Origin: an uncultured bacterium
GTDB lineage: Bacteria; Fidelibacterota; Marinisomatia; Marinisomatales; UBA2128
Direction: 5' to 3'
Assembly (NCBI GenBank): GCA_964534955.1
Contig: CAZHRR010000003.1
Coordinates: forward strand, 1-41,227
DNA: 41,227 nt
Made by a program: the position numbers and the translations under genes. The notes beneath the pieces are model-generated. The model was not told the DNA's origin. It worked only from the letters and a program-made list of their open reading frames with translations, and ran no database searches. Below are positions 10,295-34,755 of the stretch, piece after piece (position 1 is the stretch's first letter; every line of letters starts with the position of its first letter).

Positions 10295-10329
10295 TTTACT
10301 ATTTTCTCCAAAGGAGTCTGTGACAATTG
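10295..10329. repeat. Left arm of a ~35-bp imperfect inverted repeat (partner 11317..11351)
   Basis: Its reverse complement CAATTGT-CACAGACTCCTTTGGAGAAAATAGTAAA aligns to CAATTGTTCACAGAATCCCGTGG-GAAAATAGTTAA with 30 matches in 36 columns. Confidence 0.65.
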
Positions 10330-10452
10330 ACTATTGTACAATATATTAACAAAGAGAAAAGGGTAAATCTGTCTTAGTTTAGGCTACCCGAAGTTCTTAT
10401 CTTAATGCAGCATCTTGCGGTAAACGTCAGAAGTAAATAATCAATTAGTTGA

Positions 10453-10638
10453 TCAATTCCTAAATAATCCTTCAAGCTTCAACAGCTGTTTCTTCATTTC
10501 CAGTCCTCCGCCGTATCCGCCCAGTGAACCATCATGAGCAATGACCCTGTGACAGGGGATTATGATGGGAATGGGATTGTGTGCATTGGCACCGCCCACA
10601 GCTCTCACAGCTTTGGGATTTCCCATTTGTTCGGCTAT
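10453..10638 (-). pseudogene. Duplicated 3' fragment of ogt ([16 protein letters not shown]...PCHRV...LEGLFRN*)
   Basis: 10489..10638 matches 11396..11545 with 6 differences in 150 bp; open frame with its own stop codon; 5' part absent. Confidence 0.9.
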
Positions 10639-10763
10639 AGGGAAAAAGTAACCAGCGTGAAACTTGTGTCGGAGAACTTAAATATGGAGTAGAAACGATG
10701 AATCATAAAAAATCCAAAAATCATGCTACCAGCCCTTCACGACCGGTTGACTGTGGGTTAGGT
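10639..10763 (-). mobile_element. Degenerate integron attC-like recombination site downstream of hicB
   Basis: On the minus strand, ACCTAAC (RYYYAAC) lies 10 nt after the hicB stop. Arm GTCAACCGGTCGTGAA pairs with TTCACGCTGGTTAC, leaving two extrahelical bases. The terminal GTTRRRY box is missing and the site abuts the ogt fragment. Confidence 0.5.
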
Positions 10764-10773
10764 GGCTATACAT

Positions 10774-10986
10774 TTATGCATATACCAACCTATGTCCTTT
10801 AACTTCAGGAATAGGGTCACCAAATTCTCTTGCAGTATCCAACCATAATTGAATTGCATCTTTTACGTTTACAAGTGCTTCATCATAACTATTCCCATGT
10901 GCAAGGCAACCTTGTAATTCTGGAACTTCCGCAATATAAATTTCGTCTTCCTTATCCCAATAAATTATGATTTCATACTTGCTCAT
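10774..10986 (-). CDS. hicB: HicB family antitoxin
   Basis: YEIIIYW..ED..YIAEVPEL.GC.AHG.SY.EAL...AI.LW......GDPIPE signature. Confidence 0.9.
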   Translation of the reverse strand: MSKYEIIIYWDKEDEIYIAEVPELQGCLAHGNSYDEALVNVKDAIQLWLDTAREFGDPIPEVKGHRLVYA

Positions 10987-11239
10987 TTAATTCATCCCCT
11001 AAGTTGTATTCTATTATTACTTTACGAACCTGTCGAACTTGGTACGCTTTTGCATTATTACCCTCACGTTGCAAGTTCACTTTTTCAATTATTCCACTCT
11101 TTCTGAAAATATGATGACTTCCACGAATACGTTCTTCAAATCCTAAACGTTTCAACAGTTGTTGTTAATCATCAAAACCAATGTTTTTATCCGAACCGCT
11201 CCGCAGTATTTTAAACAGAAGTTTTCCATATCTCCCCAT
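10973..11239 (-). pseudogene. hicA: HicA family toxin with in-frame stop at codon 25
   Basis: From ATG 11239 it reads MGRYGKLLFKILRSGSDKNIGFDD*QQLLKRLGFEERIRGSHHIF..., with TAA at 11165-11167; GSH motif and AKAYQVRQV are present. Confidence 0.85.
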
Positions 11240-11316
11240 AATACAAATTAGCAAATCAAGTAATTAGAAAAAACCACCATTTTTACGTCAAATTTCGATT
11301 TTTGTTTGAGCATTGA

Positions 11317-11351
11317 CAATTGTTCACAGAATCCCGTGGGAAAATAGTTAA
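11317..11351. repeat. Right arm of a ~35-bp imperfect inverted repeat (partner 10295..10329)
   Basis: See the left arm; lies 8 bp beyond the ogt stop codon. Confidence 0.65.
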
Positions 11352-11359
11352 TTCGTTAA

Positions 11360-11842
11360 TCAATGCCACTGTGCGTTTTCTAGCTTCAAAAGATATTTCT
11401 TCATTTTCAGTCCTCCGCCGTATCCGCCCAGTGAACCATCATGAGCAATGACCCTGTGACAGGGGATGATGATGGGAATGGGATTGTGTGCATTGGCGCC
11501 ACCTACAGCTCTCACAGCTTTGGGATTTCCCATTCGTTCGGCTATCTCCTTATATGAAGCTGTTTCTCCGTACGGAATTCGTTTTACTTCATCCAGAGCC
11601 TGTTTTCTGAATGGAGTAGTTTGAAGATCCAAAGGAACTGTGAACTGCTGGAGTCTGTCGTCAAAGTAGGCGATGAGTTCGTCGCAGACTGGCTGGAGGA
11701 GACGTATATCTTCAGAGGATTCCATTATGGAAAAAGCCGGATCATCCACCTCACTGGGTAGTTGAATCCGGCAGACTCCTTTATCTGATTGAACAATAAC
11801 CAAGGAGCCTATAGGCGAATCAAGTGTTGTGTGAATAAGCAT
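11360..11842 (-). CDS. ogt: Methylated-DNA--protein-cysteine methyltransferase
   Basis: IPYGETASY, AVRAVG, active-site PCHRV and LGGYGGG motifs. Confidence 0.95.
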   Translation of the reverse strand: MLIHTTLDSPIGSLVIVQSDKGVCRIQLPSEVDDPAFSIMESSEDIRLLQPVCDELIAYFDDRLQQFTVPLDLQTTPFRKQALDEVKRIPYGETASYKEIAERMGNPKAVRAVGGANAHNPIPIIIPCHRVIAHDGSLGGYGGGLKMKKYLLKLENAQWH

Positions 11843-11843
11843 A

Positions 11844-12743
11844 TCAGGGTACCGTTTCAGCTGTTTGTGATCGACCTTGTCGGTAATTTACAAAAAATAC
11901 GCCGGTGAGGATAAGAATTGCTCCCTCAAGCATCCGTGGAGTAAACTGTTCACCCAGTAGCTGCCATCCAATAATGACGGCGATGATGGGCGGAATGAGA
12001 GCGATAGTGGATATTTGCGTCACCGTAAGGTGTTTGTAGAGCCAGAAGTAAATGCTCCAGACAACCGCTGTACCCGGGATTGCAAGATAGAACAAAGCAG
12101 CAGTGTTGCGCACACCCCACTCTACGCTCAGTGGATCCTCAATAAGAAAAGAGACCGGCAGCAAAACAACTACTGCAAGGGTCTGTGACACAACATTTAG
12201 ATGGAAGTGAGGGACTTCTATCTGGTGTTTTTTGTAGAGTACGTTGGGCCAAACAGCTATCAAGACAGCCACAAGGACAGCTGCAACTCCTTTCAGTTCA
12301 AATCCTTCAAAGACACTCTTATCCTGAATAAATATCAGGGTAGTTCCTATAAACCCCATCAAAACACCTGTAATTTTTTGTGTAGTCAAATGATCAGTAC
12401 GGATAGTAAAGTGCGCGAGAAAAGCTACTCCTATTGGAAATATTGACCAGATTACGGCGGAAAGACCCGAATGAATGAATTGTGTTCCCCAGTAGGTGAG
12501 GGTGTAGGAGCATACGAAAACGACTGCTCCGAAAGCAATGTACATTTTTACGGCATTCCTGGATAGGACGAGCCTTTCTCGCCGGTAGAGAAATATACTC
12601 CACAGAATCACAATAGAGATTGCAAACCGCAGGCTCACGGCAAGGATGGGTGGGGTATTTTCAAGACCGATCTTAATTGCATACCAGGTAGTTCCCCAGA
12701 TACAGCTGACAAGAATATAAGCCAGTATTATGGCTGGTCTCAT
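11844..12743 (-). CDS. EamA/DMT family transporter
   Basis: IWGTTW..IK, PP....LRF, about 10 hydrophobic segments, LGE near the C-terminus. Confidence 0.9.
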   Translation of the reverse strand: MRPAIILAYILVSCIWGTTWYAIKIGLENTPPILAVSLRFAISIVILWSIFLYRRERLVLSRNAVKMYIAFGAVVFVCSYTLTYWGTQFIHSGLSAVIWSIFPIGVAFLAHFTIRTDHLTTQKITGVLMGFIGTTLIFIQDKSVFEGFELKGVAAVLVAVLIAVWPNVLYKKHQIEVPHFHLNVVSQTLAVVVLLPVSFLIEDPLSVEWGVRNTAALFYLAIPGTAVVWSIYFWLYKHLTVTQISTIALIPPIIAVIIGWQLLGEQFTPRMLEGAILILTGVFFVNYRQGRSQTAETVP

Positions 12744-12788
12744 TCTGTAATCAAAAGAGATGGGATAAGAGAGTGGAGAGACAGTACC

Positions 12789-13739
12789 TTAGCGACCCTT
12801 GCTCTCACCATAGCGGTTGTACAACGCTACAACTACGGGACTGGCTACGAACATGGACGAGTAAGTCCCCACCAGGATGCCTACCATCATAGCGAAAGCG
12901 AAATAGCGGATGACTTCACCGCCTGCCAGCCAGAGTACGAAGACTACCATAAAAGTAGTCAGTGAGGTGATAATCGTTCGAGAGAGCGACTCGTTGATGC
13001 TCTTATTGATGATCGCCTCATACTTCTCCTGCTTCAGCCGTTTGAGGTTTTCGCGTACACGGTCGAACACTACAATAGTGTCATTAAGTGAATAACCGAC
13101 GATGGTCAAGAATGCCGCTACAATGACTAGAGAAATCTCGTAATCCATGATTGAGAAGATGCCCAGGGTGATGAGGACATCATGAACCAGGGCGGCTATG
13201 GCACCCAAAGCGAACTTAAACTGGAACCGGATGGAGATGTAGATAAGAATCATCAGAATAGCAGAGATGATAGCGAGGACAGCCTTCCCGCGAAGTTCTG
13301 CGCCAATCTTGGGGCCTATAGTATCTGTGGACAGTTTGAATTCAGTCATTTCATCTGGAACACTCTCGGGGAATGCAGTGTAGAGTTTGTTAATGACAGC
13401 CTCATCAGCATCCTCCACAGACTCAGGCAGCTTGGGGAGGCGGACACTTACCAGATCACTCCCCTTTTCGTCCCGTTCCAGCTTGATTTCGGCTTTGCTG
13501 AAGTCGAAGGTTTCGTCAATAATTTCCACTTCGGTCAGAACGTCGCGTACACTGCTGATTTCCACCGATTTATTGTACTTGACCATTACTCTGGTACCGC
13601 CAGTAAAGTCGATCCCTAACTTGGGACCACTCTGAAGGAATAGCGATATCAGGCCTGCCAGAAGGAGAGCCCCGGAAATGACGAAACCGAAGCGGCGTGC
13701 TCCGAGAAAATCAATCTTGGTTTCTGATAGAAATCTCAT
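12789..13739 (-). CDS. secF: Protein translocase subunit SecF
   Basis: LGIDFTGG, IGPKIGAEL, HDVL and GYSLNDTIVVFDRVRE motifs. Confidence 0.97.
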   Translation of the reverse strand: MRFLSETKIDFLGARRFGFVISGALLLAGLISLFLQSGPKLGIDFTGGTRVMVKYNKSVEISSVRDVLTEVEIIDETFDFSKAEIKLERDEKGSDLVSVRLPKLPESVEDADEAVINKLYTAFPESVPDEMTEFKLSTDTIGPKIGAELRGKAVLAIISAILMILIYISIRFQFKFALGAIAALVHDVLITLGIFSIMDYEISLVIVAAFLTIVGYSLNDTIVVFDRVRENLKRLKQEKYEAIINKSINESLSRTIITSLTTFMVVFVLWLAGGEVIRYFAFAMMVGILVGTYSSMFVASPVVVALYNRYGESKGR

Positions 13740-15544
13740 ATGCTTAAAGTCTGCAGTTGTCTGCGGGATGTGATGATGTTAAAGATAGTCCGAGTGAAGA
13801 AGATAGCCGTAAACATGCTGATGGCTATACCTGCAAATAGGACAACAGCAAAACCTTTGATGGGGCCTGTACCGAACTGCCATAGGATCAGTGCCACCAG
13901 AAGAGTTGTAACGTTTGCATCGATAATGGTTGTCAGCGCTCGAGCGTAACCGCTGTCAATGGCGGTTCTGACTGTCTTCCCTTTGCCCAGCTCTTCCCTG
14001 ATACGTTCGAAAATGATAACATTGGCATCTACTGACATACCCACAGTAAGGATCAATCCGGCTATCCCTGGGAGAGTGAGAGTGGCATCAAGGGTAGCAA
14101 GTACTGCCATCACCAGTGCGATGTTCCAGATGAGTGCAACATTGGCAATGACGCCGGCAAACTTGTAGTAAATAAGCATGAAAATAAGCACGATTACTAG
14201 ACCAACCAGGATGGATTTCGTCCCCTTGTCTACGGAGTCTTGCCCTAGTGCAGGCCCAACTTCATGGCCATAGACTTTTCGGATAGGTGCCGGAAGTTTA
14301 CCAGCCCTGAGGACAATGGCGATATCCTTGGCCTCTTCCATATTGTCCAACCCTTCTACCTGAGTGCGGCCGTCGGTGATCTTCGAACGGATGACAGGAG
14401 CCATGTGAACCTTGTTGTCCAAGACAATAGCAACACGGTCTCCAACCCGGCTGGTGATGACTGACCACGTCTTGGCTCCCTCAGAGTTCATGCTTAACCG
14501 GACGATGGGCTGACCGTTGTAAATGTCGGCGACAGCATTATCTACAACCTGACCGGTAAGTTTGGGATTATTAGGGTCAGCATCAAGATAGTAGAGGATA
14601 TAAGTTTCTTCCAGTCCGGTTGAAGACTGTTGAGGATCACTGCTCCAAACAAAACGCCCAAAATCTTTCTGGATAATCTGTTTTACATCTTCCCGCTTCA
14701 GAAACCTATTTACGCGCAATCGGTTGGACAATGGTACACCCATATCACCTGATGGGGTAGGGGTCAGTAATGAGGAAAAATTATCAGCGCTGATAGCTTC
14801 TGTTTCTAGCAGTGTTTCATCAGCTAATTGTAATTCCAAACCGCCCGTGTCAGCTTCTGTTGTATCCAACTCAGTAAGAGATGTATCACCCTCGAATTGG
14901 AGAGCATCAATCTTACTTACAATATTCTGCGTGGAAGGGCTGTCCTTTAAATAAGCAAATTCAAGCAAAGCGGTTCGCTCCAGGAGAGCTTCGGCCCTGT
15001 CAGTATCGGTTACCCCAGCCAGTTCTACGATTATGCGATGGCTTCCCTGTTTTTGGATGGTGGGCTCAGAAACACCGAACTCATCTACCCGGTTCTGTAA
15101 TATCTCCAGCACTTGATTGATTGCGTCATTTGCCGCAGCATTGAGACCGTCTTTGATTTCTGCATTGTTAGAGCCGAGTCCTTCAAAGTGACGCTTTAGT
15201 TGGATTCCCTCTGCTGTTGCTGTCTGAATAAACCGACTGATAAAAGTTTCCTGGTTACCGGTTTTTTTGGCGTTTGCCAGTATAGCTATAAGAAGAGAAT
15301 CAGCCTGAGGTTTTACTGGTACTGCTAAATTCCCTACCATAGTTGGGATATCCACTTCTAAGAGGAATGAGGCGCCGCCCTGTAGATCGAGTCCCAGCTT
15401 AATGGACTCCTTCTTAAGCTCCTCGATTTGAGTTTCGTCCTCCGGCGGGAAAAACTGAAGTTTCACTGACGGCCATAATGCCCAGACAGCCCATAGGAAA
15501 ATCAGAATGCTGAAGAAAATTCTGGGTTTGTTATTATGAGACAT
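13736..15544 (-). CDS. secD: Protein translocase subunit SecD
   Basis: LGLDLQGG, RVDEFGVSEP, VGPALG and GMSVDANVIIFERIREE motifs. Confidence 0.97.
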   Translation of the reverse strand: MSHNNKPRIFFSILIFLWAVWALWPSVKLQFFPPEDETQIEELKKESIKLGLDLQGGASFLLEVDIPTMVGNLAVPVKPQADSLLIAILANAKKTGNQETFISRFIQTATAEGIQLKRHFEGLGSNNAEIKDGLNAAANDAINQVLEILQNRVDEFGVSEPTIQKQGSHRIIVELAGVTDTDRAEALLERTALLEFAYLKDSPSTQNIVSKIDALQFEGDTSLTELDTTEADTGGLELQLADETLLETEAISADNFSSLLTPTPSGDMGVPLSNRLRVNRFLKREDVKQIIQKDFGRFVWSSDPQQSSTGLEETYILYYLDADPNNPKLTGQVVDNAVADIYNGQPIVRLSMNSEGAKTWSVITSRVGDRVAIVLDNKVHMAPVIRSKITDGRTQVEGLDNMEEAKDIAIVLRAGKLPAPIRKVYGHEVGPALGQDSVDKGTKSILVGLVIVLIFMLIYYKFAGVIANVALIWNIALVMAVLATLDATLTLPGIAGLILTVGMSVDANVIIFERIREELGKGKTVRTAIDSGYARALTTIIDANVTTLLVALILWQFGTGPIKGFAVVLFAGIAISMFTAIFFTRTIFNIITSRRQLQTLSI

Positions 15545-15650
15545 TATTTCTGGTAGCGGTTCTAAAGTATTCTTTCTCGAACAAGCGGTGGCGAATTTAC
15601 CGTAGTGCTAAGTGGGAGGCAATCATTTTTAGTGAGTTTACAGGTGTTCT

Positions 15651-15713
15651 TCATTCCTTTTCTACCAGCTCCAGAAGCTGCCGAATCCACCTTATTAAAC
15701 GTTCCTCATTTAG
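15651..15713 (-). repeat. Duplicated 3' end of the DUF1801 gene (LNEERLIRWIRQLLELVEKE*)
   Basis: 56/63 nt identical to 17316..17378 (LNEERVIEWIRQLLELVEKD*); both copies end in TGA. Confidence 0.88.
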
Positions 15714-15756
15714 TACTGTTGGATAAGCATGTGATAATGCTCAGTTTTGTAGACGT

Positions 15757-16209
15757 TTAATCAAAAACATATCGCTCATCATAGTCTATATCAAATGCCT
15801 TCAAGAAGCCTAAATACTCCTGCTTAAACGTCTGTTTTTCATGATGCTTTTCCTGGTTTTGAATGTATTGAAACACATCATCTATTTGAGAATGGCCGTA
15901 TGAAAACGCTCCATATCCTTCCTGCCAGTTAAATTTTCCCCGAATCAATTTTTTTGAATTGATGAAATTTGATGTGTCCTTTTTCATATCCCGAACTAAA
16001 TCAGATATAGATTCCTTAGGCTTCATCCCAATAAATATATGAACGTGGTTAGGCATACTATTTATAGTAATGAGTTTGTGATCCTTGTTTTGAACTATAC
16101 CCGTTAAGTATCTATAGATCTCGTCTTTTATGTCTTTATTGATAAGGTTTTGTCTTGATTGAGTTGAAAAGACAATTTGAATGTAGATTTGTGTGAAGGT
16201 GTTTGCCAT
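15757..16209 (-). CDS. tnpA: IS200/IS605-family Y1 HUH transposase (RAYT-like, no tnpB)
   Basis: MANTFTQIYIQIVF start, HUH motif NHVHI, F.WQEGYGAFS, catalytic YI.NQ. Confidence 0.9.
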   Translation of the reverse strand: MANTFTQIYIQIVFSTQSRQNLINKDIKDEIYRYLTGIVQNKDHKLITINSMPNHVHIFIGMKPKESISDLVRDMKKDTSNFINSKKLIRGKFNWQEGYGAFSYGHSQIDDVFQYIQNQEKHHEKQTFKQEYLGFLKAFDIDYDERYVFD

Positions 16210-16228
16210 TGGTTTATCTCCTTTGTTG

Positions 16229-16356
16229 AACTCCTACGGGTTTCTCCCCTAAGTCTATGAAATCTATCAGGACTTAGTTTTATTTGTTTTGACTCCATTA
16301 GGAGTCTGATATTTATAGCACAAAAATTTTAATAAACACAACACCGTTAGGTGTTG
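16229..16356. repeat. Cluster of REP-like short palindromes upstream of the transposase
   Basis: AACTCCTACGGGTT (16229-16242); CTAAGTC...GACTTAG (16249-16277); GACTCC-ATTA-GGAGTC (16291-16306); CAACACC-GTTA-GGTGTTG (16339-16356). Confidence 0.65.
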
Positions 16357-16435
16357 AATGAAATTGTTTTTGATTTTTTATTTTTGCTCATTCATGTTGG
16401 ACATATAAGGTGTATTTTCTATTGGAGGTAAGATT

Positions 16436-16816
16436 TTAAGAGATTGGTTTTCTATGAATTTCATGATTGAAATCTGGGGCTAATGAGGATTTTTTAATTA
16501 CTCGACTCAGGAGGTCAGCATTCTCAGATGTCACAGATTCTCGGCATCTATAACAATAGCTCTCACTTTTTCTGTTTTCATAAGGTAGAAAATAGTTGTG
16601 GCAATTTGCACACGATAACCATTGCCTTTCGCAATTCTGGCAAAGATGATGGTTTTTTTCTTGTGTCTGGAAGGAAGTAGAGCACACAGCGCATGATCTA
16701 TTAAAAGTTTTTTGTACTACTTCACGCCTGTGGCCCCTATTTCTGAGAAGTTGAATATCTAGAGATTTTCTTTCTTCAAGTTCATCAAAACATGAATCAC
16801 AATGCAATTGATACAT
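16436..16816 (-). CDS. Cys-rich hypothetical protein with repeated CxxC-x(n)-CxxC Zn-ribbon units; probably the C-terminal half of a frameshifted gene
   Basis: CDSC, CAVC...CQNC and CANC...CYRC; 58-bp out-of-frame overlap with the upstream ORF. Confidence 0.55.
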   Translation of the reverse strand: MYQLHCDSCFDELEERKSLDIQLLRNRGHRREVVQKTFNRSCAVCSTSFQTQEKNHHLCQNCERQWLSCANCHNYFLPYENRKSESYCYRCRESVTSENADLLSRVIKKSSLAPDFNHEIHRKPIS

Positions 16817-17250
16817 GAATTCAGGCTTAAAATATTTTTACACCACCCAAGGAGAATAGTATCTTTATGTTTGAAAAATACATAGTCGTAACCACGATAA
16901 GTTGACTTGATAGCTTCAGACTCCATTAAGTAGAGAGAATCAAGAACTTCCTCGGGTATCTGTGGTATCTTGATGTTCCTTATGCATACATCGTACTTGA
17001 ATGTTTGACGTTGTAGTAAGAGTGGTTTATCTTCATCATTGTTATTTCTTAAAACCGAGTCGGATTCTTTTGGAATTGACTCGACAAAATCTTGTATAAC
17101 TCTCTGTGGATTACTAATAGTAAGTTTTACATTCCTTCTAAATTCCAAAAGGTATGTTCGGCAGAATCTCCAATACCTTCCAGCACAATCAACACATATA
17201 TCATTAATTAGAGAAAGGTTTTTATCTTTATGACATTCTATGCAATGCAT
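16759..17250 (-). CDS. Hypothetical protein with N-terminal CxxC...CxxC; probably the N-terminal half of a frameshifted gene
   Basis: 163-aa AT-rich ORF with CIEC...CVDC; no recognisable family. Confidence 0.55.
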   Translation of the reverse strand: MHCIECHKDKNLSLINDICVDCAGRYWRFCRTYLLEFRRNVKLTISNPQRVIQDFVESIPKESDSVLRNNNDEDKPLLLQRQTFKYDVCIRNIKIPQIPEEVLDSLYLMESEAIKSTYRGYDYVFFKHKDTILLGWCKNILSLNSCINCIVIHVLMNLKKENL

Positions 17251-17315
17251 ATTGTGTCTATTGATAAAGTTTTGTAAAAGAACAATGTTTTTTCCTCATT
17301 AAGAATAAATCCTAT

Positions 17316-17680
17316 TCAGTCCTTTTCTACCAACTCCAGAAGCTGCCGAATCCACTCGATTACACGTTCCTCATTCAGTTCAATAATGAAGCGAAATTTC
17401 ACCTGCCTCATTCTGGTGCCAGTTCCTTCAATAACGTTCTCAGAATCGTCAAAATCAAGACCGTGGATAAAACCCGAGTTTCCCATTATCTTATCAGTAG
17501 AGATGTAGAAAAGATTCTGATCAGTAAAGTAAACAGGATTTCCCCATTTGATAGCTTCGTTCAAAAGCAGGATGTTATCGAGAACTATCTTGGGAGTTGT
17601 TGTGCAATCTCTTGAAATGGTTAAGAGACTTTGGCAACATAGTACTCCGCATCCTTAGCGTTGATTCGTTTGCAGCTCAC
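17316..17680 (-). pseudogene. DUF1801 (YdhG-like) pseudogene
   Basis: GTG overlaps the kbl stop; reads [28 protein letters not shown]/frameshift/KIVLDN...EAIKWGNPVY...EGTGTRMRQVK. Confidence 0.72.
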
Positions 17681-18864
17681 CCTCCGATAACCCCTTGTTT
17701 TTTGCCAATTATAATAAAAGCCTCAATCGCTTTATCCAACTGTCTCTTTGAATGCGCCGCGCTAATCTGTACCCGTATACGGGCTTCACCTTTGGGGACT
17801 ACAGGATAAGAAAAACCGATCACGTAAATTCCTTTTTTCAACAAGTTAGCTGCCATATCTTGGGCAAGCTGTGCATCCCCCAGCATAATAGGTACGATTG
17901 GATGAATGCCAGGATGGATGTCGAAGCCGGCTTCTGTCATTTTCTCACGGAAGTATATAGTATTTTCCTCCAGCTGGTCCCGCAGTTCAGTCGTCTCTGA
18001 CAGCATATCTATGCAGGCGATACCGGCTGCAACAATAGCTGGTGCTAATGTATTGCTGAAGAGATACGGCCGGGAGCGCTGCCTCAGGATATCCACAATT
18101 TCCTGCCGCCCGGAAGTGAATCCGCCACTGGCTCCGCCCAAAGCTTTCCCCAAAGTTGAAGTGACGATATCCACTCTTCCCATGACGCTACAATGGTCAA
18201 TGGAGCCCCTGCCTGCAGGACCAAAAAATCCGGTAGCGTGGGAATCGTCCACCATAACAAGGGCGTCATACTTCTCCGCCAGATTGCAGATATCTTTCAG
18301 CTTAGCCACATCGCCATCCATTGAAAAGACACCGTCGGTAGCGATTAGGCGGGTCTTGTGTGATTTTGTCTGCTTAAGTACATTCTCCAGTGCGGAAAAG
18401 TCGGAGTGAGGATAGCGGAACCGTTCAGCCTTGCAGAGGCGGATACCGTCTATGATGGAGGCGTGATTAAGCTGATCAGAGATGACTACATCTTCCGGCC
18501 CTAACAGTGTTTCGAACAGTCCACCATTGGCATCGAAGCAGGATGTGTAGAGGATAGTATCATCCATCTGAAGGAATTGGGCGATCTTCTTCTCCAGCTC
18601 CTTGTGGATGGTTTGCGTACCGCAGATGAAGCGGACAGAACTGAGACCAAATCCCCACTTTTCCAGTCCCTGCTGAGCTGCAGTTATGAGCTCATGATTA
18701 TTAGCCAATCCGAGGTAGTTATTGGCGCAGAAATTTAGGACTGTCTTTCCGCTCACGGTGATTTCCGCACTCTGGGGTGATTGAATTACACGCTCATCCT
18801 TGAACAGTCCAGCCTCACGAATATTTTGCAGTTCCTCAGTCAATTTAGGTGTGATTGTATCCAT
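17677..18864 (-). CDS. kbl: Glycine C-acetyltransferase (2-amino-3-ketobutyrate CoA ligase)
   Basis: [23 protein letters not shown] lysine in [19 protein letters not shown]; start placed at ATG 18864 (or 18867) behind GGAG. Confidence 0.95.
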
Positions 18865-18956
18865 CATTTCTCCACTTAGATTCTTGTGTACATTTCTCCA
18901 ATTATCCAATATTCCATCACTCCATTACACCACATCTTCAAAGGTACTACTCTCGT

Positions 18957-19976: not shown

Positions 19977-20286
19977 GTTTTAACTGTGTTATTGATATTT
20001 ATTGCTGGTTATTGTCATGAGAACTAATAGTTCATTCATTGCGCTTTCAATAATGATTGTACCTTCTCTATAACCATCTATAACAGATGGAATCAATTTA
20101 GTTTCAGAAGGTATCTCCTGCAAGCCATTTTCACAATTTTCTCGACGAGAAATTGCTTTGCTATAGTCGGGAATCTCCTTGTATCTCCTTAACTCCGCCG
20201 TTAAATTCGAGTCGCTGAATTTCATCAAGACTGCCAACCGAAAACATATTTAACAAATTGTCGGGAAGAAGTTAATAAAGATAGAT

Positions 20287-26019: not shown

Positions 26020-26034
26020 TAGGATTATTTGAAA

Positions 26035-27561
26035 ATGGATATCAAGACGAATGAAATAAGAGATCTCCTGATCAGGGAAATAGAGAAGTTTGATGTTACC
26101 GTTGATGTTGCCGAAGTGGGAGAAGTCATTGAAGTCGGCGACGGCGTGGCACGAGTCAGCGGCTTGGAAAATGTAGTCAGTTCCGAACTGGTTGAATTAC
26201 CTAACGATGTTTTCGGTATGGCGCTAAATCTGGAGGAAGACAATGTTGGGTTGGTACTATTTGGTGAGAGCCATCTGGTTAAGGAGGGTGATGATGCAAA
26301 GCGAACCGGACGGGTAGTGGAAATTCCTGTCGGTGAAGCAATGCTGGGAAGAGTAGTGAATCCGTTAGGTCACCCCATTGATGGAAAAGGTCCTATCGAT
26401 ACAACCGATAGTCTGCCAATCGAACGGAAAGCGTTGGGTGTGTTAGCTCGCCAGCCGGTGAAGAAGCCGCTGCAGAGCGGGCTCAAGGCTATTGACAGCA
26501 TGATTCCCATTGGCCGAGGCCAGCGTGAATTGATTATCGGCGATAGGCAGACCGGAAAGACAGCTATCGCCGTTGATACCATCATCAACCAGAAGAGTAC
26601 CCATGAAACTGATTCCCCGGTATATTGCATTTATGTAGCTATAGGACAAAAAGCGTCTACAGTGGCTCAGGTAGTGGCAAAGCTGGAGGAGCATGGTGCT
26701 ATGGAATACACAACCGTAGTGGCTGCTAATGCTTCGGATCCGGCGCCTCTGCAGTACATAGCTCCATATTCCGGCTGTTCTATGGGTGAATTTTACAGGG
26801 ACAACGAAAGACATTCACTTGTGATATATGATGATCTTTCCAAGCACGCATGGGCTTATCGTCAGATGTCGCTTCTGCTTAGGAGACCTCCCGGCCGAGA
26901 GGCGTATCCAGGAGATGTCTTTTATCTGCACAGTCGACTTCTTGAGCGTGCCAGTAAACTGCACGATGACCTTGGCGGCGGCTCGCTGACGGCTCTCCCT
27001 ATCATCGAGACGCAGGAAGGCGATGTCTCTGCTTACATCCCGACCAATGTTATCTCTATTACAGACGGCCAGATATATCTGGAGACCGGTTTGTTTAACG
27101 CAGGAGTTCGTCCAGCAATTGACGTGGGACTTTCAGTCTCCCGTGTAGGGGGAAACGCTCAGATCAAAGGGATGAAGAAAGTGGCAGGCATGCTTCGTCT
27201 GGACCTGGCGCAGTTCCGTGAGTTGGAGGCGTTCGCTAAATTTGGCTCTGATCTGGACAAGAACACCCGGGCGCAGCTTACAAGAGGTCAGCGGATGGTG
27301 GAGATCCTGAAGCAGGACCAATACTCGCCGGTGGATGTAGCAAAACAAGTGACGATTATCTGGGCTGGTAATAACGGTTCTCTCGATGATATCCCTCTGA
27401 ACAAGGTTGCTGAGTTTGAAGAAAGTTTTCACTCCTTTATGGAAGCGAACTATGGCAGGATTCTCGATGAATTTTCTGCTGTTGGAGAGTTGAGTGAAGA
27501 GAGCGAGAAGACTCTTGAAAAGGCAGTAAACGAATTTAAGGCAGGGTTCTCCGCTGAATAA
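26035..27561 (+). CDS. atpA: F0F1 ATP synthase subunit alpha
   Basis: GDRQTGKT and [20 protein letters not shown] motifs; ATG at 26035 (TTG 26029 is an alternative start). Confidence 0.98.
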
Positions 27562-28419
27562 ATGGCAAATCTGAAAGACATCCGGGACCGGATAAAGTCT
27601 ATCCGGAGTATCCAGCAGGTGACAAAAGCCATGAAGATGGTTGCGGCGGCAAAACTTCGACGGGCTCAGGAGCGGATGGAACAGGCACGACCCTACGAAA
27701 AGCGCCTGAGTCAGGTTATTCATTCGCTGCTGCCGGATGTGGATCGCTCACTCCTGCCGTTGTTGGACGTACGGGAAGTGAAGAGGGTTGCTTTGGTAGT
27801 GTTTTCTTCTGATCGGGGTCTTGCAGGTTCATTTAACTCAAGTGTTATCCGACGGGCAGAGGAGGAGATTAAATCCATAGGGAAGGAAGCTACTGAGCTG
27901 ATTTGCATCGGTCGGCGAGTACGAGACTATTTCCGCAAGCGTGATTACAATATTGCTGTTGATCATGCTGACTTTTGGAGTGAGCTGAGTTTCACTCATG
28001 CCATGGAGTTTGGTAAAGATGTAATCGAGCTGTTTGTTTCCGGTGAGGTTGACGAGGTGCATGTTATTTTCAACTGGTTCAGAAGTGTCGGTACACAGGA
28101 AATCCGTATGGAACGTCTCCTTCCACTGGTTTACGAAGGAGAGGAGCAGACACTTATTGAAAGACTATACGAACCATCGAAGGACGAACTGGTCTGCTCA
28201 CTCATACCGCGACACATGAACGTGGAGATGTGGAAGTATCTTCTGGAATCATACGCAAGCGAACAGGCAGCCCGCATGGTGGCTATGGATAATGCCACTG
28301 AGAATGCAGGGGAACTTATTCACGACCTGCGGCTGGAGTTTAACAAGCTCAGGCAAGCGGCTATTACCAAGGAAGTATTGGAAATCGTAAGCGGAGCAGA
28401 AGCGCTGAAAACTCAATGA
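27562..28419 (+). CDS. atpG: F0F1 ATP synthase subunit gamma
   Basis: TKAMKMVAAAK, DRGLAG, SEQAARMVAM and RQAAITKE motifs. Confidence 0.98.
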   Translation: MANLKDIRDRIKSIRSIQQVTKAMKMVAAAKLRRAQERMEQARPYEKRLSQVIHSLLPDVDRSLLPLLDVREVKRVALVVFSSDRGLAGSFNSSVIRRAEEEIKSIGKEATELICIGRRVRDYFRKRDYNIAVDHADFWSELSFTHAMEFGKDVIELFVSGEVDEVHVIFNWFRSVGTQEIRMERLLPLVYEGEEQTLIERLYEPSKDELVCSLIPRHMNVEMWKYLLESYASEQAARMVAMDNATENAGELIHDLRLEFNKLRQAAITKEVLEIVSGAEALKTQ

Positions 28420-28453
28420 TGCCGCTTTACACATACAGTCAATTATCAGTTAG

Positions 28454-29865
<1,412 letters not shown>

Positions 29866-29866
<1 letters not shown>

Positions 29867-30261
29867 TGAAATCATTTCATCTGGAAATTGTAACACCTGA
29901 TGAACTCCGCGATAAGGGAGAAGTGACTTATGTCCGCTGTCCGGGGATGGATGGACTTTTTGGTGTCATGGGCGGGCATATCCCGGCTCTCATCGCGTTA
30001 ACTACTGGGGAGATCAAGGTCACTAAGGGGGGTAAGGATATTTTCTATGCTACTAGCGGCGGATATGCTGATATCTCAGCTGAGAAGGTTGAGCTTTTAG
30101 TGGAGACAGTAGAGCGGGCAGATGAAATTGATGTTGCACGAGCTAAAGCAGCTCGAGAAAGGGCGAAGGAGCATCTGTCAAAAGGCGATGTGGATTACAT
30201 TCAGGCGAAGGCAAAGGTGGAACGGGCGGCAAATCGTCTGGAAGTGGCAAAAAGACATTGA
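29866..30261 (+). CDS. atpC: F0F1 ATP synthase subunit epsilon
   Basis: LEIVTP, G.FGVM.GH.P and EID..RA..A..RA motifs. Confidence 0.96.
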
Positions 30262-30321
30262 CTATTTTCCTGCGCTGCAGAAACTCCTTCGTCCTTTTAA
30301 ATAGCAGAGACAAATTTTAAC

Positions 30322-32091
30322 ATGTTTAAGCGCACTCATACTTGCGGCGAACTCCGGTCTTCAGACATTGGCAGCAAAGTGAATCTGAACGGTTGGGTCT
30401 CTACCACCCGGGATCACGGCGGGCTCATCTTCGTAGATGTCCGTGACCGTTATGGAATCACACAGATTACGTTCAACGAAGAATCACATGCTGAGCAGTT
30501 CACCGTTGGTAGAAAGCTGTCTATTGAAGATGTCGTTTCGGTTCGCGGCACTGTTCAACCCAGGAAGAAAGGGGCAGTGAGGAGAAATCTTCCCACTGGT
30601 GAGATCGAAGTAGAAGTAGTGGAGATCGAAGTACTTTGTGAGACAGCTCCTCTTCCATTTGTGGTCAGTGACCGGGAAAGCGCCAGCGAGGATTTTCGGC
30701 TGAAGTACCGCTATTTGGAACTGCGGACGAAAGAGCTTCAGCACTACATGGATATCCGGCATAGAGCGTCTCAAGAGGTGCGGAGCTATCTTTCCAGCGA
30801 GGGTTTCATGGAGATCGAGACGCCGTTTCTCATGCGTTCCTCTCCGGAAGGTGCCCGGGACTACCTGGTGCCTAGCCGCATCCACAAAGGGAGATTTTAT
30901 GCATTGCCGCAGTCACCGCAGACATACAAACAGCTGTTGATGATCTCCGGATTTGACTGCTACTTCCAGATAGTCCGGTGCTTCCGGGATGAAGACCTTC
31001 GTGCGGATCGTCAGCCTGAGTTTACTCAGATTGATCTGGAGATGTCGTTTATTGATGAGGACGATATCCGGGAGGCTGTGGAAGGCCTTGTCCGGCATGT
31101 CTTCCGGGAAGTGATAAATGTGGAACTGTTTGAAGACTTTCCTGTGATGGCTTACGAAGAAGCGCTGGAGATGTACGGCACGGACCGGCCGGATATTCGT
31201 TTCGGCTTACCGCTGATAGATTTTGCGGAGTACGGTGCCGCTTCTGAGTTTAAGGCGATGCACGATGCAGAATGCGTTAAGGCGATTGTCATCGATGACG
31301 GCAGTAGCTACTCGCGGAAAGTGATAGACGGGCTTACAGATTTTGTGAAGGACTACTCAGCTCAGGAAGGAAAGGCAGCGCTGGGAGGACTGGCGTGGAT
31401 GCGCTTGAAAACCAGCGAGTTTTCCGGAGGTGTGAGCAAGTTTTTCGGCAAGGAATTACAGCAAAGGATTATCTCTGATCTGAAGCTTAAGGATGGCGCT
31501 CTCATCCTGGCGGCGGCAGGGGAACACTCCACTGTTCTGGCGACTATGGGAGCACTCCGGTTGGAGATTGCCAAAAGGGATGACCTGATTTCCAATGGTG
31601 AGTATCAACCTGTCTGGATAATGGAATTCCCTCAGTTTGAGAAGGACGAGAAGACCGGGCAGTGGACATTTCTGCACCATCCGTTCACTTCGCCACGGGA
31701 GGAAGATCTAGAGCTGTTGGAGAATGATCCCGAAGCGGTGAAATCTCGGGCCTACGACTTGGTCATCAATGGCTATGAAATAGCCGGCGGCTCCATCAGG
31801 AATCACAATCCAAAAGTACAGATGAAGATCTTTGAAATCTTGGGCATGTCGAAAGAGGAAGCCACTGAGAAGTTCGGCTTTTTACTGGAGGCGCTTACTT
31901 ACGGTGCTCCGCCTCACGGCGGCATTGCCTTCGGGTATGACCGCTTCGTTATGCTTCTGGCAGGGACTCACCAGATCCGGGACGTTATCGCCTTCCCCAA
32001 GACCACAAGCGCCCTCAGTCTTATGGACGGTTCACCCAGCGAAGTTGCTAAAGAGCAGCTGGACGAGCTGGGGATTCAGCTGAAGAAATAA
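30322..32091 (+). CDS. aspS: Aspartate--tRNA ligase (probably non-discriminating Asp/Asn type)
   Basis: RTHTCGEL, RDHGG, ALPQSPQ, FRDEDLRADRQPEF and GAPPHGG motifs. Confidence 0.97.
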   Translation: MFKRTHTCGELRSSDIGSKVNLNGWVSTTRDHGGLIFVDVRDRYGITQITFNEESHAEQFTVGRKLSIEDVVSVRGTVQPRKKGAVRRNLPTGEIEVEVVEIEVLCETAPLPFVVSDRESASEDFRLKYRYLELRTKELQHYMDIRHRASQEVRSYLSSEGFMEIETPFLMRSSPEGARDYLVPSRIHKGRFYALPQSPQTYKQLLMISGFDCYFQIVRCFRDEDLRADRQPEFTQIDLEMSFIDEDDIREAVEGLVRHVFREVINVELFEDFPVMAYEEALEMYGTDRPDIRFGLPLIDFAEYGAASEFKAMHDAECVKAIVIDDGSSYSRKVIDGLTDFVKDYSAQEGKAALGGLAWMRLKTSEFSGGVSKFFGKELQQRIISDLKLKDGALILAAAGEHSTVLATMGALRLEIAKRDDLISNGEYQPVWIMEFPQFEKDEKTGQWTFLHHPFTSPREEDLELLENDPEAVKSRAYDLVINGYEIAGGSIRNHNPKVQMKIFEILGMSKEEATEKFGFLLEALTYGAPPHGGIAFGYDRFVMLLAGTHQIRDVIAFPKTTSALSLMDGSPSEVAKEQLDELGIQLKK

Positions 32092-32105
32092 CACCTGTAA
32101 GTCAG

Positions 32106-32780
32106 ATGAACATTTTCATCACTGGCGCAAACCGTGGGCTCGGATTGGGATTTGTACAGCACTATGCGAACCGTGGTGACAACATTATTGCAGGGTGTCG
32201 TATTCCAGAACAAGCCGTCGAATTAAAGGAACTGGTTCCCAAGGAACATATTATTCGGATAGATGTGGCTGATCCTGAGTCCATTGCCCAAACCGTAGGA
32301 AGAGTCAGGGAGCTAGTAAATCGACTGGATATCCTCATCAATAACGCGGGGGTGGGTGAGGATACCAGTGCTGAACTTCCCTCATTTGACGATCTTATCC
32401 GTACATACTCTACGAATGCCATTGGTCCGGTGTTGCTGACAAAGCAGCTTAAGACGCTCCTGTCGAAAGGGTCGAAAGTGGTAAATGTCACTTCCCGCAT
32501 GGGTTCTATCGCTGACAATACTTCCGGCGGTTACTACGACTACAGGATGAGCAAGGCAGCTCTTAACATGGCCACGAAGAATCTCCACCTTGAGCAGTAC
32601 CAGCACGGGGTTATCGTGTTCGCAATTCACCCCGGCTGGGTACGGACCGATATGGGAGGGGCCAGTGCTCTCCTCAGCGTTGAGGAGTCGGTAAGAGGGA
32701 TGGTGCAGGTCATTGACACTGCCAGTACTGAGGTCGGAGGTACCTTCCTTGGATACGATGGCGAAGAGATTCCTTGGTGA
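32106..32780 (+). CDS. SDR family oxidoreductase (CsgA/C-factor-like)
   Basis: TGANRGLG, NNAG, YRMSK and HPGWVRTDMGG motifs. Confidence 0.92.
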   Translation: MNIFITGANRGLGLGFVQHYANRGDNIIAGCRIPEQAVELKELVPKEHIIRIDVADPESIAQTVGRVRELVNRLDILINNAGVGEDTSAELPSFDDLIRTYSTNAIGPVLLTKQLKTLLSKGSKVVNVTSRMGSIADNTSGGYYDYRMSKAALNMATKNLHLEQYQHGVIVFAIHPGWVRTDMGGASALLSVEESVRGMVQVIDTASTEVGGTFLGYDGEEIPW

Positions 32781-32841
32781 TTTGGGCAGAGTATTATATC
32801 CATGTTTATCTGTGTACATCTGTGGATAAATTCGCTTTGAT

Positions 32842-32859
32842 ATGAATATCACTCCCATT
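32842..32859 (+). repeat. Orphan duplicate of the first six codons of the sirtuin gene (MNITPI)
   Basis: ATG AAT ATC ACT CCC ATT versus TTG AAT ATC ACA CCT ATA at 34036..34053. Confidence 0.6.
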
Positions 32860-33018
32860 TCAAGAGGCAACACAGATAATAAACCTCCACATCAACAACG
32901 TTACAAAGAAGGATAACTTGAGAATAGGTGGACTTCTGAGGAATACTTGATAGTTCGAAAGTATAAGGGAGAATTCGATAGAACCTGAAATATTGGGCTT
33001 GAAGTATGGGTAAAATCT

Positions 33019-34029
33019 ATGGTGGATAAACAGACAGATATTGTCATCTATAAATCCAGAGGTGTTGAACCAACCTTGGAAGTAAACCTTACAGAAGACA
33101 CCGTTTGGTTGAATCAGCAACAGGTTAGCAAACTCTTTCAGGCTGAACGGAGTGTCATTGCAAAGCATATCAATAATATTTACAAAACAGGGGAATTAAA
33201 GCGTACAGCAACTTGTGCAAAATTTGCACAAGTTCAAATAGAAGGTGGAAGATTGGTCCAACGACTTATATTGCACTACAATTTAGATATGATCATTTCA
33301 GTGGGCTACCGGGTTAATTCCAAAGTTGCAACTCACTTCCGTATCTGGGCCACAAATGTGTTAAGAGACTATACTGTCAGAGGTTATGCGCTGAATAAAC
33401 AGAGACTACAAGAACGGGAGCGGGGACTTGATGAGTTGACCCAGAGTATAAAACTGATACAGTCAGTAGCCGAAACACGACAGCTTTCCCAGACCGAAAC
33501 CCGGGGATTACTTCAGGTCATTTCCGATTATGCCTATGGCCTGAAGACCCTGGATGATTTTGATCGTCGAAGTCTGACCATTCAGGATACTCACGAGGAG
33601 GTCAAGTTTGTTCTCGATTATGAAACCACCAGGAAAAGCATTGATGAAATGACTATCCAACTTAAGAAGTCTGGGGAAGAGGTGAGTCTGTTTGGCGTAG
33701 AAAAGGACTATTCGCTTAAAGGTTCGCTGAGATCCATCTACCAGACAGTAGGGGGTAAGGATGCCTACCCCAGTGTGGAAGAAAAGGCGGCACATTTACT
33801 TTACTTTGTTATCAAGAACCACCCCTTTGTGGATGGGAACAAGCGGGTCGGTGCCTCCCTCTTTCTCTGGTTTCTCGACCGAAATAGTTGCCTTTATAGG
33901 AAAGATGGTAGCAAACGGATTGCTGATAACGCTCTAGTAGCCCTCACACTGATGGTAGCCCAGAGTATCCCGGAAGAAAAAGAGCTTATCGTGAAAGTCA
34001 TTGTTAATTTAATTAACAGGGAGAATTGA
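33019..34029 (+). CDS. RhuM-like N-terminal domain plus Fic/Doc domain protein
   Basis: TVWL.Q and YNLDMIISVGYRVNS..AT.FR.WAT (RhuM); HPFVDGNKR (Fic/Doc). Confidence 0.9.
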   Translation: MVDKQTDIVIYKSRGVEPTLEVNLTEDTVWLNQQQVSKLFQAERSVIAKHINNIYKTGELKRTATCAKFAQVQIEGGRLVQRLILHYNLDMIISVGYRVNSKVATHFRIWATNVLRDYTVRGYALNKQRLQERERGLDELTQSIKLIQSVAETRQLSQTETRGLLQVISDYAYGLKTLDDFDRRSLTIQDTHEEVKFVLDYETTRKSIDEMTIQLKKSGEEVSLFGVEKDYSLKGSLRSIYQTVGGKDAYPSVEEKAAHLLYFVIKNHPFVDGNKRVGASLFLWFLDRNSCLYRKDGSKRIADNALVALTLMVAQSIPEEKELIVKVIVNLINREN

Positions 34030-34035
34030 ATAGTT

Positions 34036-34755
34036 TTGAATATCACACCTATAGACCCCGCCGATTATGATCATATTGTCTTTTTCACCGGTGCAGGAAT
34101 GTCGGCAGAATCGGGAGTGCCAACTTATCGCGGTTCAGGCGGTATCTGGCATGAGTACCGGTGGGAAGATTATGCCTGTCAAGAGGCGTGGGAGCGGAAT
34201 CCGGAAAAGGTTTTTGATTTTCACGATGAGCGGCGGAAGGAAGCGCTGAAGTGTGATCCCCACTCTGGGCACGAGGTGATTGCACGGCTTGAACAAAATC
34301 ACCAGGATGTAACAGTAGTCACGCAAAATATTGATGGTATGCATCAGCGGGCCGGCTCCCGGAAAGTGATCGAACTTCACGGCAGTATCTGGCGGGTACG
34401 CTGTGAGCAGGAAGGAGTTGTTCGTGAGGATGCTAATCCCGGATTGTACACTTCACGTAAATGTGACTGCGGAGCCTGGCTTCGACCGGATGTAATATGG
34501 TTCAGTGACTACCTGAATCCCGACACTTTACGCCAAGCCGATGAAGTTATTTCCAAGGCAAATCTGTTCATCTCTATCGGTACATCCGGAGTGGTATGGC
34601 CAGCAGCCGGTTATCCCCAGTTGGCAAAGTCCTCGGGTGCTGCATTAGTGGAGATTAATCCCGAACCTTCGGATCTGAGCGGGTTCTATGATCGGGTGAT
34701 AAGGGGAAAAGCTGGGGAAGTGCTGGGGAAGTTGTTCTTATTCGCTGGCGATTGA
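34036..34755 (+). CDS. cobB: NAD-dependent protein deacylase (CobB/Sir2 family)
   Basis: TGAGMSAESGVPTYRG, TQNIDGMHQRAG, ELHGS, LRPDVIWF, GTSGVVWPAA and EIN motifs. Confidence 0.92.
   Translation: MNITPIDPADYDHIVFFTGAGMSAESGVPTYRGSGGIWHEYRWEDYACQEAWERNPEKVFDFHDERRKEALKCDPHSGHEVIARLEQNHQDVTVVTQNIDGMHQRAGSRKVIELHGSIWRVRCEQEGVVREDANPGLYTSRKCDCGAWLRPDVIWFSDYLNPDTLRQADEVISKANLFISIGTSGVVWPAAGYPQLAKSSGAALVEINPEPSDLSGFYDRVIRGKAGEVLGKLFLFAGD

Follow-up and report, generated by a model that had tools for sequence, protein, structure and literature searches.

Cargo genes between diverged copies of core-gene ends in an uncultured bacterium of the order Marinisomatales

Among islands and prophages that recombine site-specifically, some integrate in the 3' end of a gene, carry a replacement end and leave the native end as a fragment at the far junction. 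The present analysis concerns three blocks of cargo genes, each lying between two copies of an end of the adjacent gene, in a stretch of 41,227 nucleotides (the window) from an uncultured bacterium of the order Marinisomatales (GenBank assembly GCA_964534955.1, contig CAZHRR010000003.1, positions 1 to 41,227). Insertion with long target duplication has been described for restriction-modification (RM) genes, with long variable repeats, no mobility gene and an unknown mechanism (Furuta, Abe and Kobayashi 2010, PMC2853133). The repeats of the published RM cases are nearly identical, e.g. 44/46 and 47/47 (PMC2853133; Mruk and Kobayashi 2013, PMC3874152), and the 2013 review presents the route as a feature of RM systems (PMC3874152). 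Integron cassettes outside integrons are covered by the CALIN concept (Cury et al. 2016, PMC4889954), and insertion by the integron integrase, IntI, at genomic GWT sites ('attG'), with imprecise excision nearby, has been shown experimentally (bioRxiv 10.1101/2022.09.11.507474). For integrase-less islets of toxin-antitoxin (TA) genes, double crossovers in the flanking core genes and lost transposases have been proposed (PMC13617665, PMC12359135).

The window is part of contig C3 of the source assembly, G000 (2.57 Mb, 242 contigs, 97% complete, 91% coding), and its housekeeping stretch at 8.8-34.8 kb is broken by three foreign blocks. These have been compared with two congeners (G001 and G002) and with the genomes G003, G005, G006 and G020, of which G006 and G020 come from other families of the same order. 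All genomes compared are metagenome assemblies, and public runs were used as contigs, not reads. The runs holding the window are seawater or marine metagenomes, and contigs of four public runs (X1, X2, X3 and X5) were mapped to positions 9600-18000. The blocks are read here as products of a rare junction, either illegitimate or made by IntI, followed by spread through homologous recombination within the repeat; to this reading a probability of about 0.5 is given. The block at ogt carries most of the argument, and its features are as follows.

11360 to 11842, minus strand: intact ogt gene, 160 aa (open reading frame; Pfam Methyltransf_1N and DNA_binding_1)
11290 to 11545, minus strand: repeat copy A, the last ~185 nt of ogt and ~70-85 nt of downstream intergenic DNA (repeat search, blastn, alignment)
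10973 to 11239, minus strand: hicA toxin gene, apparent pseudogene (HicA_toxin match, one internal TAA)
10774 to 10986, minus strand: hicB antitoxin gene, 70 aa (Pfam HicB_lk_antitox / UPF0150)
10637 to 10770, minus strand: attC-like site of the hicAB cassette, a structured element of ~135 nt (family search, folding, nhmmer, covariance model)
10280 to 10638, minus strand: repeat copy B, the displaced ogt 3' fragment and native intergenic DNA toward the DUF502 gene (open reading frame, Pfam, alignment)

Read along the minus strand, the order is ogt, downstream DNA, hicA, hicB, the structured element, a second ogt end (10638-10453), intergenic DNA and the DUF502 gene. The two ogt ends form a direct repeat (10471-10638 / 11378-11545) of 168 nt and 94% identity in the repeat search, or of 204 nt and 88% at a spacing of 907 in blastn; in a four-way alignment with the two congeners the duplicated unit comprises the last ~185 nt of the gene and ~85 nt past its stop, ~270 nt in total. 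The displaced fragment retains an open frame of 57 aa (open reading frame, ORF, 10453-10626) that matches the Ogt DNA-binding domain. The core of the two copies is 96% identical, the tail of the intact gene (11360-11395) is 61% identical to that of the fragment, and the drop occurs at one point, adjoining a 60-nt identical block. Downstream of the stop, copies A and B share 65.7% identity with 106 gap columns, and the DNA of copy A is nearer to congener G001 (78.6%) than to copy B.

Filled and empty alleles, whose comparison the earlier note had suggested, could be set side by side, with empty sites in G001, G002, G003 and the X5 contigs. In both congeners the DUF502 gene directly follows ogt. 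An X5 contig from another study (flanks ~95% identical, depth ~520, 41 ambiguous letters) joins 10488 to 11396 seamlessly, skipping 907 nt. The single-copy ogt end of X3 (10047-10638) differs from the window at 24 letters only, four of which are copy A letters in the core (10500, 10591, 10594 and 10597); as the 19 tail differences between A and B cannot be accommodated in the remaining count, the X3 tail is of type B. The X5 allele agrees with this, having an A-type core and a B-type tail. Deduced from these two related populations, the native ogt allele is A-core plus B-tail, so the foreign DNA of the window would be one contiguous block at ~10500-11395, made up of the B-core, the attC-like element, hicB, hicA, donor intergenic DNA and the A-tail, a circular permutation of 'gene end + cargo'. 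The intact ogt hence combines a native 5' part and core with a non-native C-terminal tail. The single switch point, beside the longest identical block of the repeat, fits one reciprocal crossover, or two that both favoured that block. An elsewhere located cassette of the genome, C24, has the same inversion: the tail of its intact gene is unlike that of G003, and the tail of the fragment is like it. The proposal that cargo arrived with the gene end of a related allele is therefore upheld at ogt, where the X3 and X5 empty sites carry the fragment's tail, and at C24; homology-anchored recombination fits both. The depth of the hicAB cassette in X1 and X2 (7.9, against 9.4-9.8 in the flanks) was too weak a difference to claim partial excision.

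The hicAB block ends in a putative attC site. An R''-like motif, ACCTAAC, stands 12 nt past the hicB stop, and the distal end of the site abuts ogt copy B. The element belongs to a sharply bounded family of ~135 nt. Of 233 genomes of the order, 11 contain members, at 14 places altogether, and a reversed-pattern control gave 0 matches. Its members end in yTAAC ... GTTAGGc (R' of the GTTAGGC type), the distal core being degenerate in the window copy, which scores an E-value of 8.5e-24 in nhmmer and 94 bits with a covariance model (CM). The inner stem (L-box) is formed by GTAACCGGCGTGAAA and TTTCACGTCCGGTTGAC and contains bulged bases; conservation extends to 15 pairs, and 2 show compensatory changes, as in a hairpin of single-stranded DNA (ssDNA). 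The window site has the attC layout R''(RYYYAAC)-L''...L'-R'(GTTRRRY), namely an imperfect hairpin with bulges, 3' of an ORF. On these features the assignment as attC and recombination by IntI are both putative. The element also lies 12 nt after the hicB stop in G020:C36, with a 92%-identical cassette, and in G006:C68, and an array in G020:C16 (L134, 1000-4000; from another family of the order) holds four attC-like sites at intervals of ~500-800 nt, separated by HicAB and PIN-type ORFs. In the window, ogt fragment B starts exactly at the distal end of the element, TTTTTCCCT being followed directly by ATAGCC. The ogt site at the junction is GGAG/ATAGCC, in which GATAGCC is of the GWT type and matches the family core GTTAGGC at 5 of 7 positions.

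The absence of an integrase, claimed in the earlier note, holds within 10295-34053 and not for the genome, where a predicted integron integrase gene lies on another contig and could act in trans on the attC-like site of hicAB. This gene (G000:C160:2-790, L152) matches TIGR02249 with 351 bits at a cut-off of 265 and is cut by the contig start. The search of the 97%-complete genome for recombinases of this type yielded XerC, XerD and this one IntI only. The cassette array of the C160 integrase would lie beyond the contig end; more sites of the attC family in G000 were found at C4:7610-7744, C170:271-393 and C170:993-1069. As for the cargo itself, an in-frame TAA at 11165-11167 interrupts hicA (DD*QQLLKR, where the 92%-identical cassette of G020 reads DDLRQLLKR), and in-frame stops occur in 4 of the 11 hicA loci of the genome (C13, C201, C3 and C54), with hicB open, so that the toxin is eroding.

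The recurrence of cargo at gene boundaries, between diverged gene-end copies, was confirmed in a self-comparison of G000. A total of 74 near direct-repeat pairs were found, and 24 of them bracket cargo by a fixed rule (two copies, neither inside a long ORF, with at least one ORF between the copies). Two sets of 24 have to be distinguished, the rule-selected pairs and the cassettes picked by eye. Among the rule-selected pairs, 14/24 involve a gene 3' end (300 random placements gave 5.1 on average and 11 at most), and 19/24 involve any gene end (mean 7.2, maximum 14, likewise 300 placements). Repeat identity across 24 pairs ranges from 77 to 97%, none being identical; 18 of the 24 repeats are without an exact match of at least 55 nt and six have one. 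The cassettes are compact, with 0.4-5 kb of cargo and a spacing down to 572-922 nt for many, and single-copy empty sites for C52 and C24 exist in G003.

TA, RM or abortive-infection (Abi)-type genes occur in at least 16 of the 24 cassettes picked by eye. The cargo types are HicAB-type pairs, PIN/MazE-like, HipBA, YoeB/ParE with DUF2281, DUF4258, DUF4160/DUF2442 and HTH/M78 with an RHH antitoxin, and further Fic, AbiEii with an AEP-TOTE helicase, an ORF6N/nucleotidyltransferase block, a type II RM pair (C80, with an 86-nt repeat) and several AAA/STAND-like NTPases. Six of the 11 hicA loci of G000 lie inside such cassettes. Two repeats extend into tRNA genes: that of C93 (90-396 / 5629-5935, 307 nt, cargo AbiEii/AEP-TOTE) includes the 5' part of tRNA-Glu, and that of C31 (13978-14121 / 16583-16725, 144 nt, cargo hipBA) the 5' part of tRNA-Phe; it is the 3' part of a tRNA gene that integrases commonly duplicate.

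A comparison of 25 cassettes (C9 and the 24 picked by eye) revealed no shared ends, hairpins or boundary motif, and folding of the cassette spacers gave no general hairpin signal. With long duplications present as well, the HUH/REP-type ssDNA mechanism that the earlier note had offered as one option gained no support; the Y1 transposase in the window belongs to a separate multi-copy element. G000 has 12 Y1-transposase matches, some of them RAYT-like, and a GC-rich repeat resembling repetitive extragenic palindromes (REP), in ~31 copies (e.g. C22:22697-22846), lies beside four repeat-bracketed cassettes. This multi-copy repeat was considered as attC and rejected, being REP-like instead. Exact 55-nt repeats spaced 155 nt were also set aside, as they stem from scaffold gaps, where 100 N stand between k=55 overlaps (e.g. 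C1:23442-23541), and not from elements.

Beyond the source genome, direct repeats of at least 28 nt within 4.5 kb bracket 20 of 80 loci of hicB relatives, sampled across many phyla, and 7 of 121 shifted controls; some of the bracketed loci carry multi-copy repeats, possibly attC or REP arrays, and in one (L033) the repeat is a tRNA part. Tight cases are L058, with a 275-nt repeat of a gene 3' end, and L054, with a 127-nt repeat, and in the same order L007/L037 show a 47-nt repeat of an amidohydrolase 3' end.

The second block lies at a DUF1801-family gene and contains the following features.

17316 to 17564, minus strand: DUF1801-family gene, 82 aa, the last 65 nt of which (17315-17379) are copy A2 (open reading frame, Pfam, repeat)
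16436 to 17250, minus strand: cargo 2, two overlapping Cys-rich (Zn-ribbon-like) ORFs (open reading frames)
15745 to 16360, minus strand: IS200-like element within cargo 2, with its Y1 transposase at 15757-16209 (Pfam Y1_Tnp)
15650 to 15714, minus strand: repeat copy B2, the displaced DUF1801 3' end, adjoining the secD upstream region (repeat, blastn)

The repeat (15650-15714 / 17315-17379) is 65 nt long at 89% identity, with a spacing of 1665, and ends at the stop codon. G001 has an empty site with a single DUF1801 end and no cargo, and an X5 contig joins 15692 to 17367, skipping 1674 nt. The cargo is polymorphic, with a depth of 28-38 against 160-180 for the flanks in X3, and it is nearly absent in X5. 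The Cys-rich ORFs gave no match in Pfam or PADLOC, and the IS200-like element has other copies with conserved ends elsewhere in the genome. Side observations at this block are that the DUF1801 gene is eroding in the genus (the last ~95 nt are kept in G002 and ~20 nt in G003; loci L017 and L018), that in an X5 contig 16359 is linked back to 15745 through 29 intervening letters of other sequence, a tandem or circle-type junction of the IS200-like element, and that X3 variants skip ~355 nt of its transposase gene.

The third block involves the 5' end of a gene and a much shorter repeat.

32842 to 32860, plus strand: remnant of the cobB 5' end, ATG and 4-5 codons, upstream of RhuM-Fic (match to cobB starts)
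33019 to 34029, plus strand: cargo 3, RhuM-Fic gene (Pfam Virulence_RhuM and Fic; PADLOC candidate system PDC-S23, E 3e-133)
34036 to 34755, plus strand: intact cobB, Sir2 family, the first ~19 nt of which are the second copy of the short repeat (annotation, match)

The remnant begins with ATGAATATCACTCCC at 32842. It agrees with the cobB start of G002 at 15 of 15 positions and with that of the window itself at 14 of 19; no other place in the window reaches more than 13. The duplication is real but short, ~15-19 nt. RhuM-Fic sits between the SDR gene and cobB; in G001 SDR is followed directly by cobB, in G002 aspS is followed directly by cobB and RhuM-Fic is absent, and G003 shares the insertion. 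A 76% RhuM-Fic homologue lies elsewhere in the genome of G006, from another family. A 23-nt pair (32959/34011) was discarded as a cobB duplicate, as both members belong to the RhuM-Fic cassette, itself conserved in G006. The last codons of the Fic gene (GGGAGAATTGA, window 34011-34035) form the Shine-Dalgarno region of cobB, whose TTG start follows 6 nt later; the insertion has rewired the translation signals of cobB. A fourth case had been suspected at kbl, in a duplicated ribosome-binding site and ATG. It was dropped, and the ogt, DUF1801 and, in its short form, cobB cases stand: the kbl pair is an exact 10-mer repeated 26 nt apart and ordinary. The window has 15 near 10-mer repeats of this type, where 200 Markov shuffles gave 2.4 on average and 13 at most.

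The copies differ overall in the manner of alleles. Over 14 gene-overlapping pairs the differences by codon position are 46, 30 and 93, i.e. 55% at the third position (p = 1e-8 if one third is taken as the expectation; p = 8e-4 if it is a rough 42%, as under free drift of one copy). The pairs counted are those in which a copy overlaps an ORF of at least 80 aa, leaving out nine without such an ORF and one that is gapped; pooled over them, 72 codons differ synonymously and 68 non-synonymously, and the fragments contain one premature stop. The signal is driven by C24 (24 synonymous, 8 not), C93 and C5, and the ORFs at C22 and C155 may be spurious. The claim that the copies differ mainly at synonymous sites is thus retained for the genome-wide sum and given up for the pairs of the window.

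In the mechanism proposed, a rare junction would first set the cargo beside a gene end and duplicate that end. For hicAB this junction looks integron-made, an attC-like site being joined to the GATAGCC pseudo-core in ogt, and IntI could have acted in trans. In a second step, of which the outcome is seen at ogt and the route is conjectural, 'one repeat copy + cargo' would move between related lineages via homologous recombination in the repeat; an equivalent course would be a circle looped out repeat-by-repeat and re-entering by a single Campbell-type crossover. After each transfer the recipient would have an intact gene with the tail of the donor, and its former tail would persist as a fragment past the cargo, which is why the copies would differ like alleles. 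The gene-end pattern would be the work of selection. With 91% of the genome coding, a duplication of 50-300 nt can persist only where one gene copy stays intact, so that insertions would be kept only if the duplicated part reaches across a gene end. The genome encodes ComEC, and Ku was not found in it at 97% completeness.

Several points weigh against this reading. Repeats of 17-65 nt are short for a RecA-type crossover. The attC-ogt junction is CCCT/ATAGCC and not the expected exact CCG/ATAGCC, and the 5' boundary of the hicAB cassette has no GTT core. The attC family was not detected in the other cassettes, the CM search of 26 sources having matched the window, L002 and L014 only (the rest at E of 0.46 or above), although sites of other attC families could have escaped this search; in 9/24 cassettes the spacer 3' of the cargo is shorter than 55 nt, too short for attC. 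No circle, tandem, excision product or back-joint of hicAB was seen in the run contigs, which drop rare forms. As the ogt repeat contains an exact block of 60 nt, longer than the apparent k of 55 of the assembler, the k-mer graph alone cannot separate 'integrated' from 'empty chromosome + 907-bp circle'. None of the 8 hicB loci on contigs longer than 300 kb is bracketed. The window pairs are not strongly synonymous (6 synonymous against 8 non-synonymous codons in ogt, 3 against 3 in DUF1801), the excess in ogt being due to its wholly different C-terminal tail, and the mosaic at C52 fits in-situ duplication with decay equally well.

A broader version of the proposal, in which TA and defence cassettes generally travel with a copy of a core-gene end, loop out repeat-by-repeat, home to that gene end in related genomes by a single host crossover, restore the gene with the end they bring and leave a fossil end, all without an integrase, is possible and at present tentative. 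Diverged gene-end duplicates would in that case record the traffic of cassettes in many phyla. The leading alternative, insertion in situ with a long target duplication (by staggered breaks or template switching) followed by drift and occasional gene conversion, needs neither a carried end nor a circle. It agrees with the published class for RM genes (PMC2853133), to which the RM pair of C80 with its repeat would correspond, and at C52 each copy resembles the relative in its functional parts and has diverged in the non-functional ones; moreover, the synonymous bias is missing at C22, C155 and C52. Decay, however, predicts the reverse of what is found at ogt and C24, where the functional copy has the non-native tail and the dead fragment the native one, and the DNA downstream of copy A is closer to another species than to copy B. 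The pooled third-position excess and the open frames of the fragments also speak against it, as does the lack of a single identical pair among 24 although the cargo is polymorphic among ~95%-identical strains. This explanation is therefore considered unlikely.

Somewhat more doubtful still is the action of IntI alone at hicAB, by which an 'extended cassette' circle (ogt 3' end, 85 nt, hicAB and attC) would have been excised imprecisely and re-inserted at the same GWT site. The attC-like site at the exact boundary of ogt fragment B, the 5/7 match of GATAGCC to GTTAGGC, the IntI gene in the genome and the G020 array with the same attC family all agree with it, and insertion at GWT sites genome-wide with imprecise excision has experimental precedent (bioRxiv 10.1101/2022.09.11.507474). 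It predicts, though, a donor A-core and a native B-core, and in the X3 and X5 alleles the reverse is seen at 4 of 6 differing core positions, the other two being unreadable. The junction is inexact, and the explanation leaves out both the cassettes without attC and the hicAB of G005, which has a 47-nt repeat and no attC match.

That the cassettes are remnants of integrase-borne islands, the repeats being attL/attR of an element that brought a replacement gene end and later lost its integrase and most of its cargo, TA genes being left behind, is improbable. A replacement 3' end is typical of such islands, the hicB locus L033 is bracketed by a tRNA 3' part and TA genes resist deletion. The repeat sequence is nevertheless different at every locus, with no shared core; the spacing is as small as stated above in many cassettes, the search of the genome yielded XerC, XerD and one IntI only, and the repeats of C93 and C31 cover tRNA 5' parts and not 3' parts. 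An assembly artefact, in which strain-chimeric short-read contigs mimic duplicates, is equally improbable: the assembly is scaffolded from 242 contigs with k=55 overlaps at gaps, six of the repeats hold exact matches of at least 55 nt and no long-contig hicB locus is bracketed, but the graph path is unambiguous for the 18 repeats without such a match, both cargo junctions of the ogt and DUF1801 blocks are reproduced in independent Logan contigs, the cassette depth is 7.9 with 9.4-9.8 for the flanks, and the same architecture occurs in other assemblies.

The housekeeping genes of the stretch at 8.8-34.8 kb are plsY, the DUF502 gene, ogt, an EamA transporter gene, secF, secD, the DUF1801 gene, kbl, a tdh-like epimerase gene, parA, parB, an M23 peptidase gene, a bactofilin gene, the ATP synthase operon, aspS, SDR and cobB. 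Rfam and tRNA scans of the window gave no matches. The EamA transporter gene (window 11689-12703) appears strongly polymorphic or partly deleted in related strains: 527 nt are skipped between 12175 and 12703 in X3 and X5 contigs, and X5 has a diverged stretch of equal length in place of 11689-11941.

How type II TA and small defence loci reach ordinary chromosomal positions without a mobility gene is debated. The diverged long gene-end duplicate is a searchable sequence signature, present at 24 loci of one 2.57-Mb genome and at a quarter of the sampled hicB loci. If the proposed reading is true, a mechanism described for RM genes only would extend to a wider pool of conflict genes and would be linked to integron cassettes escaped from arrays; transfers could be dated and traced from the repeats alone. 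In annotation, short gene-end fragments beside TA genes would then have to be regarded as footprints of such insertion and not as noise.

The description of the phenomenon as undescribed, made in the earlier note, was too strong, since a long variable target duplication without a mobility gene has been published for RM genes (PMC2853133). Literature searches and passages of three sources (PMC3874152, PMC13617665 and PMC12359135) yielded no description of it for TA cassettes; the term 'direct repeat' is in neither PMC13617665 nor PMC12359135, and 'duplication' appears once in the former, in another sense, and not in the latter. Like the TA islets, the present cassettes are compact TA loci without mobility genes in core neighbourhoods, with host recombination as the supposed vehicle and eroding toxins (PMC13617665, PMC12359135); unlike in the islets, the crossover would take place inside a gene end that is duplicated and moves along with the cargo. 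In contrast to site-specific islands, no integrase lies in or near the cassettes, a common core is lacking and the cargo amounts to only 0.4-5 kb, and in contrast to IS200/IS605 or REP/RAYT elements, conserved subterminal hairpins or ends are lacking and long duplications are present.

The SALIN class (attC x attG at GWT sites) is resembled by the hicAB block, with its single attC-like site 3' of hicB, which abuts a GAT site in ogt, and with IntI elsewhere (bioRxiv 10.1101/2022.09.11.507474). However, insertion by IntI gives no target duplication, other cassettes have no detectable attC, and the allele pattern of the ogt core fits a homologous crossover better than re-insertion by IntI. The likeness is also considerable for the class of Kobayashi and colleagues. 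It relates to a small unit without a mobility gene, direct repeats of more than 30 bp at ogt (~270 nt) and DUF1801 (65 nt), the cobB repeat being shorter than this, a repeat that has one counterpart only at the empty site of a relative and varies in length by locus, and no recombinase in 10295-34053 except for the nested IS200-like element. There are also clear differences. The repeats here are 77-97% identical with allele-like differences, the tail and downstream DNA of ogt copy A are not native, the cargo consists mostly of type II TA, Abi, Fic and NTPase genes, and the end of the intact gene is foreign at two loci. What is new here is the allele-like nature of the repeat copies, together with a foreign tail on the intact gene and the native tail on the displaced fragment at ogt and C24.

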